From Escherichia coli (GTDB lineage: Bacteria; Pseudomonadota; Gammaproteobacteria; Enterobacterales; Enterobacteriaceae): a stretch of DNA of 64,000 nt. Below the pieces are notes generated by a model that made no database searches, was not told the DNA's origin, and saw nothing but the letters and a program-made list of their open reading frames with translations. How positions within the stretch are numbered: position 1 is the stretch's first letter; each line of letters begins with the position of its first letter. Position numbers and translations under genes: made by a program. Of this stretch, positions 3,530 to 27,371 are shown in pieces. The stretch lies in assembly GCF_041248615.1 (NCBI RefSeq), contig NZ_CP158426.1; one strand, 5' to 3'.

Positions 3530-6400
3530 TTATATTTTTTCCAGCGCAGTGAGTATTTTCTCCGGTGTGAAATGCCATTCGCGTAACCAGATGCCGCATG
3601 CATCGTGAATTGCGGTAGCAATCGCCGGAGCGGCGCCATTTACACCGATTTCCGAGATCGATTTCGCCCCGAATGGGCCGACTTTATCGTCGCTCGGCAC
3701 CAGCACAGCGCGGAAATCACGCGGAATGTCACCAATTTTCGGTGCGCCGTAACTGCGTAAATCACGCGTTAACGGGTGACCTTCGGCGTCATAAATGATT
3801 TCTTCGCTCATACTGTGGCCGATAGCACGTAGGGTAGCACCGTAGATTTGTCCCAACGCTAACTCTGGATTGACCGGTGTACCGCAGTCCAGCAAGGCGT
3901 AGAATTTATCCAGGCGGATTTCACCCGTACGCGTGTTGACGGCAACTTCAGCGAAGTTCGCGCCATACGGGAAGGCGAAATCAGGCGTGATATAACTGCC
4001 AGTTCCCACCAGTGAACCAAAGCCGGTGCCGGTTTCGCCTTTATGGGCAATATCCCCGAAACTAACTTCGCCTTTCTTGCCGCGCACGACGCCCGGCGTT
4101 GCCAGTTGAACATCTGCCACTGGCTCACCCAACATTTGCGCGCCGTGGAACAGAATTTTCTCCCGTAGATTTTCCGCTGCCAAACGCGCCGCGTTACCCG
4201 AGAAGCAAGTACCGGACGAGGCATATGCGCCTTTATCAAACAACGCATGATCGGTATCACCGGAGATAACATGCACGTCCTGCGGTGGGCAGTGCAGCAC
4301 TTCTGCTGCCAGTTTCGTCACTACAGTATCCAGACCAGTACCAATATCCGCACCGCCAGAATGAACGATAAAGGTGCCGTCCGATTCCAGTTTGATCATG
4401 CAGTTAGCCTGATCGATATCCGGGATACCCGATTTCTGCATGATAATGGCGACGCCGCGACCGATGTGCCAGTCACCATTTTGCGGTTTCGGTGACGACC
4501 ATTGGATCATCTCGCGACCCTGACGCAGGATCTCTTCCAGTGCACAGCTGGCGGCGGAAGGAACGGAGGTCGGCGCTTTACCTTCACCGATTGCACCGAG
4601 AATTTTCAGCTCTTGCCCTTCGTGTACCCGGTTACGTTCGATAATTTCCAGTTGGTCGATCTGTAACTGTTCAGCCAGTTCCGCTAATGCCATGGTGATA
4701 GCGAAGTTACCTTTCGGTGCGCCATAACCCTGATAAGCACCATTTGGGCAAATGTTGCTGTAGTAGGTGGTGACCTGGAAATCGACGTTATCGCACGGAT
4801 ATAACGGCAGCGACAGCGCCGGTCCGTTACACGGTACGGTGAGTGAGTGGTTGCCGTAAGGGCCAGTGTTGGCGCGGAAATCCATCTTCACTGCCGTCAG
4901 GCGACCATCTTTTTTCGCTCCCAGTTTGACGGTGACTTTCGCGACGTGACGAGAGGTGTTAGCAATAAACTCTTCTTCACGGGTGTAGCGGAACAGTACC
5001 GGACGCCCGGTCACGCAGGTTGCCCAGGCGCACACTTCTTCCAGCAGGATGTCCTGTTTGGAACCAAAACCGCCGCCAACTCGCTCTTTAATGACATGAA
5101 CTTTATGCTGTTTCATGCCCACGAGGCGCGCGACCTGGCGGCGTAAGTGCCATGGTACCTGGGTGGAGGCGTGGATAACCAGACGATCGCCGTCCATACG
5201 AGTAAAGCAGATATGTGTTTCAGTCGGGCACTGCTGCGCTTGCGTTGAGTTATAGGTTCGCTCAATGATCACATCGGCATCGGCAAAGCCTTTGTCCATA
5301 TCGCCAATATGACCATGAATACTGGCGGCGATATTTTTGCGAGGGCGAGAACCGATCGGGAAGTTGATGATCATATGCTCGCCGCGCTGGGCTGCATGGC
5401 TGTTATCGTCTTCCAGAGTATCTGGCGCACCAGCAACATACACCACCGGTTCATCGTGCACGACAGGCGCATCTTCCGCCATTGCTTCGTCGATCGACAT
5501 TACCGGCTTAAGCACTTCATATTCAACGTCGATGAGCTTCAGTGCTTCGAGCGCAATTTCTTCACTTTCTGCGACGACCGCAGCAACACGATCGCCGACG
5601 TGACGCATTTTCTTGCCGAACATACGGCGGTCAAGCGGTGACGGTTCCGGTGCGCTCTGACCACCCGGGGTATAGTAGATATCCGGGCAATTCAGGTGAG
5701 TAATAACGTGAACGACGCCCGGTAAGGCTTCAGCTTTGCTGACATCCAGATGAGTAATCAGTGCGTGAGCGTGTGGGCTACGTAACATTTTAATGACGCA
5801 GGCGTCAGCCGTTACGCGGTCTTCAACATAGCAGGGTTTCGCCTGCACCATTTTCGCGGCATCAGTTTTAGGATAATGCTTACCAATGACTTCTAGGTCG
5901 TCACGGAAAGTCGGAGCGATATCAATGGTGGCCTGCGGATTATTTTTACGTGCAACCGCCAGTTCAATGACCTGATAGTATTGCTGCCAGCCAGCATCGC
6001 GGCTGAACAAACCAGAAAGCGCGTCGTCGATCTCTTCGCGGGTAGGTGCGGCGATGCGATCGAGAAGATCGGTGATAATCAGAGCTGCAGCTGGATCGTT
6101 ATAACCAGACTGCACCACGCCAACATCAACCATTGCCTGTTGAACCAGACTTAACTCGTTCCATTTGCCCAGAGATTCTGCGGTACGAATATCTGCCTTC
6201 TCTAACTGTGCGGCAATAAGCAAGGACGCGTTAACGATATTACCGTTAAAGATTATTGCGTCAGAACCGGCAAACCCGAAACCATCATCACTGTTGCGTA
6301 CAGAGTGCATTCCCATGTTAAACAACAGCTTTTGCACGTTTTCGCCTGGATTAACGGTTAGCTCCTGAGGCGCGCCATTTAAAGTAAAGTGGATGATCAT
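3530..6400 (-). CDS. xdhD: Molybdopterin-dependent oxidoreductase with N-terminal [2Fe-2S] domain (putative hypoxanthine oxidase)
   Basis: 956-aa ORF with xanthine dehydrogenase/aldehyde oxidase-like architecture; 4-bp overlap with ygfM start suggests translational coupling. Confidence 0.9.
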   Translation of the reverse strand: MIIHFTLNGAPQELTVNPGENVQKLLFNMGMHSVRNSDDGFGFAGSDAIIFNGNIVNASLLIAAQLEKADIRTAESLGKWNELSLVQQAMVDVGVVQSGYNDPAAALIITDLLDRIAAPTREEIDDALSGLFSRDAGWQQYYQVIELAVARKNNPQATIDIAPTFRDDLEVIGKHYPKTDAAKMVQAKPCYVEDRVTADACVIKMLRSPHAHALITHLDVSKAEALPGVVHVITHLNCPDIYYTPGGQSAPEPSPLDRRMFGKKMRHVGDRVAAVVAESEEIALEALKLIDVEYEVLKPVMSIDEAMAEDAPVVHDEPVVYVAGAPDTLEDDNSHAAQRGEHMIINFPIGSRPRKNIAASIHGHIGDMDKGFADADVIIERTYNSTQAQQCPTETHICFTRMDGDRLVIHASTQVPWHLRRQVARLVGMKQHKVHVIKERVGGGFGSKQDILLEEVCAWATCVTGRPVLFRYTREEEFIANTSRHVAKVTVKLGAKKDGRLTAVKMDFRANTGPYGNHSLTVPCNGPALSLPLYPCDNVDFQVTTYYSNICPNGAYQGYGAPKGNFAITMALAELAEQLQIDQLEIIERNRVHEGQELKILGAIGEGKAPTSVPSAASCALEEILRQGREMIQWSSPKPQNGDWHIGRGVAIIMQKSGIPDIDQANCMIKLESDGTFIVHSGGADIGTGLDTVVTKLAAEVLHCPPQDVHVISGDTDHALFDKGAYASSGTCFSGNAARLAAENLREKILFHGAQMLGEPVADVQLATPGVVRGKKGEVSFGDIAHKGETGTGFGSLVGTGSYITPDFAFPYGANFAEVAVNTRTGEIRLDKFYALLDCGTPVNPELALGQIYGATLRAIGHSMSEEIIYDAEGHPLTRDLRSYGAPKIGDIPRDFRAVLVPSDDKVGPFGAKSISEIGVNGAAPAIATAIHDACGIWLREWHFTPEKILTALEKI

Positions 6401-27371: not shown

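Follow-up and report, generated by a model that had tools for sequence, protein, structure and literature searches.

What does the run of molybdenum-hydroxylase and purine genes at positions 3530–27371 of this 64,000-nucleotide stretch of Escherichia coli DNA (contig NZ_CP158426.1; the whole stretch is called the window below) do, and how is it switched on? The region is almost certainly the E. coli "reductive uricolysis" or "2,8-dioxopurine" locus, including its regulation by the sigma54 activator YgeV, the regulatory part being inferred here. The pathway steps rest on published experiments with proteins identical or nearly identical to those encoded in the window. As far as the enzymes are concerned nothing new is added, the system being well known and the whole route already published.

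The two limits correspond to the stop codon of xdhD and the K-12 start of xdhA, and 16 intact genes, xdhD through xdhA, are found between them, as judged from the open reading frame list and from the annotation of RefSeq record NZ_LT599825.1, which is 100% identical and agrees with the list on the 16 genes. The stretch 3530–27371 shows 100% identity to the chromosome of E. coli NRZ14408, and 5148 of 5426 complete E. coli genomes have a single place covering 80% or more of its length. The gene order is that of K-12 b2866–b2881, inverted. Compared directly with K-12 MG1655, the 24,459 bases differ at only 17 nucleotides; 13 of the 16 proteins have the K-12 sequence throughout and the remaining three differ by one to three residues, the five substitutions being I142M in HyuA, V436I in XdhA and L52H, D107G and D151E in YgeV. 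No internal stop was found in any of the 16 genes, none is disrupted and all lengths match K-12. Each protein scored higher than the curated cut-off set for its own NCBIfam model, and the expected Pfam domains are present. Since gene order, intactness, the K-12 comparison and the family scores agree, the inventory and coordinates of an earlier sequence-only reading, which had named these genes in this order, are correct. In the following list each model score is given with its cut-off.

xdhD, 3530–6400, minus strand: Mo/Fe-S subunit of urate 6-dehydroxylase (urate to 2,8-dioxopurine; activity from Li et al. 2025, PMC12507026); TIGR03313, 2122.8 bits against 1101.9; Pfam Fer2_2, Ald_Xan_dh_C and MoCoBD_1/2.
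ygfM, 6397–7176, minus strand: FAD-binding subunit and NADH entry point, co-purifying with XdhD (published); TIGR03312, 489.7 against 241.5; Pfam FAD_binding_5.
ssnA, 7227–8555, minus strand: amidohydrolase opening the pyrimidine ring of reduced 2,8-dioxopurine (published coupled YgfK and SsnA assay); TIGR03314, 737.9 against 455.5.
ygfK, 8558–11656, minus strand: Fe-S flavoprotein, NAD(P)H:2,8-dioxopurine oxidoreductase (DOPOR) and not a selenate reductase (published assays); TIGR03315, 1778.7 against 835.3; Pfam Fer4_20 and Pyr_redox_2.
mocA, 11978–12556, minus strand: molybdenum cofactor cytidylyltransferase (cofactor maturation); TIGR03310, 214.2 against 186.45; Pfam NTP_transf_3.
yqeC, 12659–13429, plus strand: selenium-cofactor trait marker protein; TIGR03172, 240.9 against 73.05; Pfam YqeC.
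yqeB, 13477–15102, plus strand: XdhC-like maturation protein of selenium-dependent Mo hydroxylases (published genetics in Clostridioides difficile and Clostridium sporogenes); TIGR03309, 417 against 220; Pfam XdhC_CoxI and XdhC_C.
yqeA, 15323–16255, minus strand: carbamate kinase, forming ATP from the carbamoyl phosphate released by YgeW (published YgeW and YqeA assay); TIGR00746, 385.6 against 358.25.
hyuA, 16303–17688, minus strand: hydantoinase, ureidomethylhydantoin to 2,3-diureidopropionate (published assays); TIGR02033, 675.5 against 393.25.
ygeY, 17741–18952, minus strand: M20 hydrolase taking off the second ureido group to give 2,3-diaminopropionate (published coupled YgeY and YgeX assay); TIGR03526, 721.6 against 321.5.
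ygeX (dpaL), 19010–20206, minus strand: pyridoxal-phosphate-dependent diaminopropionate ammonia-lyase, giving pyruvate and NH3; TIGR03528, 651.1 against 532.25.
ygeW, 20264–21454, minus strand: knotted carbamoyltransferase, phosphorolysis of one ureido group of 2,3-diureidopropionate, which of the two being disputed (published assays); NF005538, 825.2 against 453.
ygeV (isrR), 21930–23708, plus strand: GAF-PAS-AAA+-HTH (helix-turn-helix) sigma54 activator, putative E. coli counterpart of the clostridial DioR.
xdhC, 23748–24227, minus strand: xanthine dehydrogenase; NF007387, 341.9 against 212.
xdhB, 24224–25102, minus strand: xanthine dehydrogenase; NF007427, 534.2 against 287.
xdhA, 25113–27371 (K-12 start), minus strand: xanthine dehydrogenase; NF007426, 1474.8 against 916.

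The genes that define a 2,8-dioxopurine cluster are thus all present: XdhD with YgfM, YgfK next to SsnA (the ygfK–ssnA gap is 2 bp), and HyuA, YgeW, YgeY and YgeX together with a carbamate kinase. The 16 genes are arranged as xdhD-ygfM-ssnA-ygfK (minus strand, read from ygfK), mocA (minus), yqeC-yqeB (plus), ygeW-ygeX-ygeY-hyuA-yqeA (minus), ygeV (plus) and xdhA-xdhB-xdhC (minus). The adjoining purine genes are xanQ (1965–3365), guaD (631–1947) and ghxQ, the last truncated by the window start; uacT, ygfT and ygfS are located just outside the window. The start of xdhA is ambiguous, as the PGAP annotation gives a protein of 765 residues from the ATG at 27410 and K-12 one of 752 residues from 27371.

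Every catalytic step of the route was assigned and reconstituted in 2025 by two independent studies. Li et al. (Life Metab; PMC12507026) found that E. coli XdhD, co-purifying with YgfM, reduces urate to 2,8-dioxopurine ("yanthine") with NADH, that YgfK and SsnA form ureidomethylhydantoin with NAD(P)H, from which HyuA gives 2,3-diureidopropionate, that YgeW with phosphate yields a mono-ureido product, and that YgeY and YgeX together produce pyruvate; urate was made from xanthine by XdhABC and consumed by XdhD, and the phenotype of a ΔxdhA mutant supports this xanthine-to-urate conversion as feeding the pathway. The same pathway was reached independently by Liu et al. (10.1101/2025.04.24.650524; Nat Microbiol 2025;10:2291) from 13C tracing in C. 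sporogenes and in mutants of E. coli MG1655 and from in vitro reconstitution of the route. In that work YgfK proved to act, independently of selenate, as an NADPH:2,8-dioxopurine oxidoreductase, ATP was formed by YgeW and YqeA, the cellular role of YgeX was demonstrated by isotope tracing, and the first enzyme of C. sporogenes was inactive if produced in a selD mutant. According to an independent commentary (PMC12990295), both studies agree save for one step, with stereochemistry and kinetics listed as remaining points. Earlier work had linked ygeV, aegA and ygfT to formate-dependent urate use. The proteins of the window are the assayed K-12 enzymes save for the single substitutions in HyuA and XdhA; XdhD is identical to that of K-12 and has Glu at residue 606.

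The sequence-only reading had suggested an anaerobic breakdown of purines or N-heterocycles with carbamoyl-phosphate-linked ATP formation, and the 2025 experiments back it in this. Its description of the cluster as incompletely characterised, with substrates not established, is outdated, because the published assignment of every step, which it had itself named as the outcome that would overturn this description, is provided by Liu et al. and Li et al. Nor does the route end in carbamoyl phosphate, as it had supposed: YgeW and YqeA act mid-route on 2,3-diureidopropionate, and the end is pyruvate and ammonia, formed via YgeY and YgeX.

In the strain analysed here, xanthine would be supplied by GuaD and the XanQ/GhxQ permeases next door and oxidised to urate by XdhABC. 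XdhD–YgfM, a molybdenum hydroxylase working in reverse, would remove the 6-oxo group of urate with NADH; the ring of the resulting 2,8-dioxopurine would be reduced by YgfK at the expense of NAD(P)H and then opened by SsnA to ureidomethylhydantoin, the hydantoin opening by HyuA giving 2,3-diureidopropionate. One ureido group would be phosphorolysed by YgeW to carbamoyl phosphate, from which YqeA would form ATP, the other would be hydrolysed by YgeY, and YgeX would convert the 2,3-diaminopropionate to pyruvate and ammonia. The molybdenum (probably also selenium) cofactor would be matured by MocA, YqeB and YqeC. Cleavage of alpha- and of beta-ureido groups both have precedents among transcarbamylases and M20 hydrolases. 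As for the significance of the route, published work credits gut bacteria that use it with removing about a third of human urate; the bacteria gain ATP from it and are fitter in the gut, and the probiotic E. coli Nissle is being equipped with the route as a measure against gout.

The regulation of these operons may be read from their upstream regions. Words shared among three of these regions led to the near-palindrome TATCA-WTA-TGAKA, which matches five times, at four sites, in the 64-kb window, where 0.28 matches would be expected; three of the four sites are positioned 105–208 bp upstream of the sigma54 elements of ygeW, ygfK and xdhA. The candidate elements, including enhancers (upstream activating sequences) and sites for CRP, are as follows.

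21545–21560, minus strand: sigma54 −24/−12 element of the ygeW operon, TGGCAC-N5-TTGTT, one mismatch to the consensus, ending 93 nt before the ATG.
11729–11744, minus strand: sigma54 −24/−12 element of ygfK-ssnA-ygfM-xdhD, TGGTGC-N5-TTGCT.
27466–27481, minus strand: weaker sigma54-like element of xdhA, TGGCGT-N5-TTGCC, with the GG-N10-GC spacing kept.
11913–11927: enhancer candidate of ygfK, perfect TTATCA-TAA-TGATAA, 176 bp upstream of the −24/−12 element.
21732–21775: two enhancer candidates in the ygeV/ygeW spacer, ATATCAATATGAGAA (21761–21775) and TTATCAAACTGAAGA (21732–21746).
27579–27614: two enhancer candidates upstream of xdhA, TTATCACATTGATTT and CACTCATATTGATAC, 21 bp apart.
11808–11823: CRP-consensus site upstream of ygfK, TGTGAGTTCATTCACA, 10 of 10 consensus positions.
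21604–21619: CRP-like site in the ygeV/ygeW spacer, TGTGATCAACCCCACA, 9 of 10 positions, conserved in Enterobacter.

The footprinting rests on few genomes, with one clear enterobacterial orthologue, that of Enterobacter sp. Bisph1, whose YgeV is 69% identical to the E. coli protein. There the ygeW and ygfK sigma54 elements are conserved base for base in a spacer otherwise only about 70% identical, the ygfK enhancer candidate is kept as TTATCATTTTGATAA, likewise a perfect palindrome, and the site aligned to the ygeV/ygeW enhancer is a perfect TTATCAAAATGATAA. An alternative register of the ygfK promoter, TGGCAA-N5-GTGCG, was dropped as it is not conserved in this genome, unlike TGGTGC-N5-TTGCT. 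Published data agree with the promoter assignments in that sigma54 promoters of xdhABC and ygeWXY were predicted earlier and a genomic SELEX (gSELEX) peak of the RpoN holoenzyme falls within the ygeV/ygeW spacer. Measured from the PGAP start of xdhA, the sigma54-like element of this gene ends 55 nt before the ATG at 27410.

The palindrome extends beyond the enterobacteria. In the Firmicute Sedimentibacter hydroxybenzoicus, a full-length YgeV homologue of 36% identity is accompanied by three perfect palindromes and a TGGCAC-N5-TTGCT promoter, followed by ygeX-ygeW-ygeY, and of six perfect copies in the 1.26 Mb of fetched loci, five belong to the Enterobacter and Sedimentibacter loci where a YgeV homologue flanks ygeW/ygeX. 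For the clostridial activator DioR, Nie et al. (2019) had predicted TTATCA-N3-TGATAA as its enhancer, with sites such as ATTTATCATAATGATAAGG, and the ygfK enhancer candidate matches these sites. As judged by its sequence, the motif is thus not new and equals the 2019 DioR prediction, although no paper naming the E. coli copies was found in a literature search of sources other than subscription journals. The Fur box is an unlikely identity for the palindrome: the best matches reach 11–13 of 19 positions, and in Firmicutes the motif is found together with sigma54 promoters and homologues of YgeV. The sequence TTGATACGTATCAC upstream of xdhA resembles by eye an FNR site; it is not common to the other operons and was set aside.

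Two further copies of the motif may be mentioned. The same enhancer 12-mer, TATCAATATGAG, occurs in the uacT/ygfT spacer outside the window (at about 1014–1028 of fetched locus L001), where a sigma54-like TGGCAC-N5-GAGCA (889–904 of the same locus) points toward uacT, its end being 68 nt from the uacT start codon; toward ygfT this spacer showed no similar sigma54-like element, though ygfT is reported to be YgeV-dependent. The other, a 10/12 copy of the palindrome (ATATCAAGATGATAT) inside the ygeX coding sequence at 19917–19931, may be due to chance or may be an internal site.

The CRP sites at ygfK and ygeW are both positioned between enhancer and promoter, and they fit the glucose repression reported by Li et al. 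(PMC12507026), who replaced a "native Crp-binding site" in the ygeV/ygeW spacer. YgeV, as a one-component GAF-PAS sigma54 activator, would bind the TTATCA-N3-TGATAA enhancers 105–208 bp upstream of the ygeW, ygfK and xdhA sigma54 promoters, and also that at uacT, and would switch the operons on when urate is present, with the CRP sites adding glucose repression. The published YgeV iModulon comprises xdhABC, ygeWXY, hyuA, ygfK-ssnA-ygfM-xdhD, ygfT and uacT, and leaves out mocA, yqeB and yqeC; control by YgeV is thus not evident for every gene of the cluster, a point on which the sequence-only reading needs correction. Motif scans of the mocA–yqeC spacer found no sigma54, enhancer or CRP element, and the maturation genes are for this reason probably outside the E. 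coli YgeV regulon. A scan for sigma70 promoters was uninformative, with counts at or below the shuffle expectation.

Hairpins were observed at the following places between genes.

3505–3520: GC-rich hairpin directly after the xdhD stop, at the operon end.
15111–15136, minus strand: terminator-like hairpin after yqeA, between the convergent yqeB and yqeA.
23718–23741, plus strand: hairpin between the convergent ygeV and xdhC.

Further GC-rich hairpins were observed in the ygeW–ygeX gap (20236–20257) and the ygeY–hyuA gap (17704–17723), the latter followed by TTTTT and a GGAG ribosome-binding site; from their sequence, both may be internal attenuators dividing the five-gene module into sub-operons. 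No RNA family was found within the cluster by Rfam.

The protein YgeV itself, named a sigma54 activator in the sequence-only reading too, has the features of a bacterial enhancer-binding protein: an AAA+ domain, the GAFTGA motif (at 347), Walker A (GESGTGK at 300) and Walker B (DE at 372) motifs and a C-terminal Fis-type HTH. Pfam recognises Sigma54_activat (PF00158, 7.6e-71), AAA_lid_14, HTH_8 (1.4e-13) and PAS_8; no Response_reg match was obtained in Pfam, and only PAS_8 is located N-terminal to the AAA+ domain. A search of the PDB with the N-terminal sequence gave weak PAS and DhaR matches only. For the AlphaFold model of residues 1–275 (mean predicted local distance difference test, pLDDT, 74), the best crystal-structure matches are to the GAF-PAS region of DhaR (E 2.8e-9), the single match ranked above DhaR being an integrative model and not a crystal structure. 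The label "orphan response regulator" that comes with the name IsrR is therefore unfitting, since a receiver domain is absent and the N-terminus is like that of GAF-PAS sensors.

In a scan of genome contigs for YgeV homologues generic AAA+ patterns dominated, leaving about eight usable full-length homologues; those of Firmicutes are 35–39% identical over residues 8–590 in pairwise comparison of the fetched sequences, and full-length homologues flank purine/urate genes in Enterobacter, Clostridium and Sedimentibacter. A CxxCx5C motif in a loop of the GAF domain (C84, C87 and C93; window 22179–22208) is kept in seven of nine aligned N-termini of the YgeV family, E. coli included, and the two sequences without it are both Anaerovorax paralogues with no purine genes nearby. 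This triad could form a metal, Fe-S or redox site, a role put forward as a hypothesis only, because model confidence is low in this loop (pLDDT below 50 at residues 88–91). In its most specific form, the proposal would be that YgeV is the E. coli DioR orthologue activating ygeW, ygfK, xdhA and uacT via TTATCA-N3-TGATAA, that Cys84-x2-Cys87-x5-Cys93 serves as a metal, Fe-S or redox site limiting induction by urate or 2,8-dioxopurine to anoxia, and that XdhD needs a labile selenium cofactor installed by YqeB/YqeC; taken in all its parts, this is conceivable and rather unlikely.

Each of the three ygeV differences from K-12 (window 22084, 22249 and 22382) changes a residue of the GAF-PAS sensor region, and two further strain differences are found in the ygeV/ygeW spacer (21579 and 21677), of which one precedes the sigma54 −24 element by 19 nt; in the remaining cluster nine of eleven coding differences are silent. 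Liu et al. (10.1101/2025.04.24.650524) attributed strain differences in urate consumption to regulation. The changes in the YgeV sensor and in the spacer may relate to such differences and are sensible candidates for a closer look.

Two other enterobacterial loci were observed alongside. In Citrobacter werkmanii (fetched locus L005, 7207–11740), a full-length YgeV paralogue of 38% identity is divergent from a ygeX-like lyase and an M20 hydrolase only, with a sigma54-like element at 9697; this locus may represent a trimmed-down version of the module, acting on diaminopropionate or on a ureido-amino acid related to it. In Enterobacter sp. Bisph1 (L003, 1–11776), ygfK is about 1.4 kb from yqeA, a distance too short for all of mocA, yqeC and yqeB, and none of these three genes turned up when the locus was searched with proteins; xdhCBA was likewise not found in about 10 kb downstream of ygeV. 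The accessory and xanthine dehydrogenase genes are therefore separable from the core pathway.

With regard to selenium, yqeB and yqeC are co-located with the hydroxylase genes between the two catabolic operons, one feature of the selenium-dependent molybdenum hydroxylase trait (Haft & Self); selD is not in the window. The tie of YqeB/YqeC to selenium-dependent molybdenum hydroxylases, also noted by the sequence-only reading, is backed by published experiments, selenium/YqeB dependence having been reported for C. sporogenes DOPDH and for C. difficile. Neither XdhD (300.1) nor XdhA (372.2) reached the model of selenium-dependent xanthine dehydrogenase TIGR03311 (cut-off 830.45); because both E. 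coli proteins belong to other subfamilies, selenium dependence is unreadable from their sequences.

These selenium markers are also the starting point of one rival explanation, according to which the cluster is a system of selenate reduction or selenium metabolism with YgfK as a selenate reductase subunit and XdhD–YgfM, SsnA and YgeY as "selenium metabolism-linked" proteins. NCBIfam and RefSeq names (putative selenate reductase subunit YgfK, Se_sel_red_Mo, Se_ssnA, selenium metabolism-linked hydrolase) and the presence of YqeB and YqeC inside the cluster speak for it; however, purified YgfK is specific for 2,8-dioxopurine, with selenate neither required nor stimulatory, the other proteins have urate-derived substrates, and a need of the molybdenum hydroxylases for a selenium cofactor is the simplest account of the selenium link, so that this explanation is hardly credible. 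Slightly less improbable, and still very unlikely, is that ygeW-ygeX-ygeY-hyuA-yqeA merely adjoins the xdh genes and serves an independent salvage of exogenous hydantoins, dihydropyrimidines or diaminopropionate. In the original descriptions HyuA was a D-phenylhydantoinase (TIGR02033 names it dihydropyrimidinase) and YgeX a diaminopropionate ammonia-lyase, and the C. werkmanii paralogue of YgeV adjoins only ygeX-like and M20 genes; but E. coli does not grow on diaminopropionate, mutants in each gene of the module block the conversion of labelled urate to acetate and accumulate the predicted intermediates, and the module has its iModulon and enhancer motif in common with the ygfK and xdhA operons. 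A further rival is the classical clostridial (Rabinowitz) route, in which urate is reduced to xanthine and passes by way of xanthine amidohydrolase to formiminoglycine and glycine. In its favour, XdhABC can interconvert urate and xanthine, and SsnA belongs to the amidohydrolases and is akin to guanine deaminase-like enzymes. Mutants of E. coli and C. sporogenes, however, yielded none of its intermediates, what had accumulated as "xanthine" turned out to be 2,8-dioxopurine and the end product is pyruvate, not glycine, which leaves that route practically no probability.

The regulatory part of the reductive uricolysis reading meets a rival of its own, in which YgeV mainly regulates virulence in response to indole (as IsrR), or else stress, and is not a dedicated activator of the urate pathway. 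The gene is strongly induced by indole in enterohaemorrhagic E. coli (EHEC), its loss attenuates Citrobacter rodentium, and the activity of the iModulon is highest with ethanol in baeR/cpxR knockouts. This would leave unexplained the conserved linkage to purine genes across phyla, where the homologues in Enterobacter, Clostridium and Sedimentibacter occur with the same palindrome and sigma54 promoters; in addition, ygeV is required for urate consumption according to published work, and the protein is devoid of a receiver domain. Such a rival is improbable, and the indole/virulence and urate roles of YgeV are not mutually exclusive.

Several points nevertheless weigh against the reading preferred here. 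Binding of YgeV at the TTATCA-N3-TGATAA sites is an in silico prediction, the palindrome is made of GATAA-like units and at some sites matches the Fur box at 13 of 19 positions, and the sigma54 element of xdhA is weak, with 8 of 11 consensus positions. One paper ties ygeV to indole and virulence genes and another to ethanol stress. Selenium dependence refers to the C. sporogenes enzyme and not to E. coli XdhD, Li et al. never mentioning selenium or YqeB. The 2025 papers disagree on the ureido group removed by YgeW and on NADH versus NADPH for YgfK, and the HyuA of the window carries I142M, unlike the K-12 HyuA used in the assays.

Elsewhere in the window, most of the K-12 ETT2 island (ygeK–ygeQ and neighbours) is absent at 28659–34800, by tRNA-Gly (glyU), and is replaced by a segment of low GC content (33–41%) with yecR, a small serine recombinase, a copy of IS1B and a truncated winged helix-turn-helix gene; within this replacement, 2.5 kb (30995–33520) contain almost no open reading frame of at least 60 residues. 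The small RNA pair OmrA/OmrB was recognised by Rfam between aas and galR, at 46881–46962 and 47077–47164.

Among known systems, the closest is the 2,8-dioxopurine pathway of E. coli K-12 and C. sporogenes, K-12 carrying the same locus with strain-level differences only (HyuA, XdhA and YgeV). The C. sporogenes and C. difficile variants have a fused XdhAC without YgfM, and in C. difficile UacX takes the place of YgfK and UacY that of YgeW/YqeA. The reductive pyrimidine degradation by the dihydropyrimidine dehydrogenase (DPD) PydA, the dihydropyrimidinase PydB and the ureidopropionase PydC is similar in its reduction with flavin and Fe-S centres to dearomatise the substrate, its opening by a cyclic amidohydrolase and its ureido cleavage, and the PydA-type likeness is reflected in the DPD-type Fer4_20 domain of YgfK, as HyuA in turn matches the dihydropyrimidinase model. 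In contrast to the Pyd route, the purine substrate first loses its 6-oxo group via a molybdenum enzyme, two rings and two ureido groups have to be dealt with, and one ureido group is removed by phosphorolysis with a gain of ATP. That last feature is shared with the arginine deiminase pathway, where a transcarbamylase working backwards, the catabolic ornithine carbamoyltransferase, gives carbamoyl phosphate and a carbamate kinase gives ATP; YgeW, however, is of the "knotted" type and specific for 2,3-diureidopropionate, not citrulline, and scores 133 with the ornithine transcarbamylase (OTC) model against its cut-off of 281.

As a regulator, YgeV is like DhaR, the activator of the E. coli dha operon, in its GAF-PAS-AAA+-HTH order and in lacking a receiver domain; DhaR senses via its partners DhaK and DhaL, whereas the GAF domain of YgeV has the CxxCx5C triad, not demonstrated in DhaR. 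The DioR regulon of Clostridiales, predicted by comparative genomics (Nie, Dong & Yang 2019) when its function was still "unknown", represents the same pathway, with dpaL/ygeX, pyrC/hyuA, argE/ygeY, ygeW-ygfK-ssnA, xdhABC and pbuX in common, and as in E. coli TTATCA-N3-TGATAA is found upstream of its TTGGCA-N6-TTGCT promoters. The clostridial regulon takes in yqeB, yqeC and mocA, for which no motif was found in E. coli, and the CRP sites are an enterobacterial addition.

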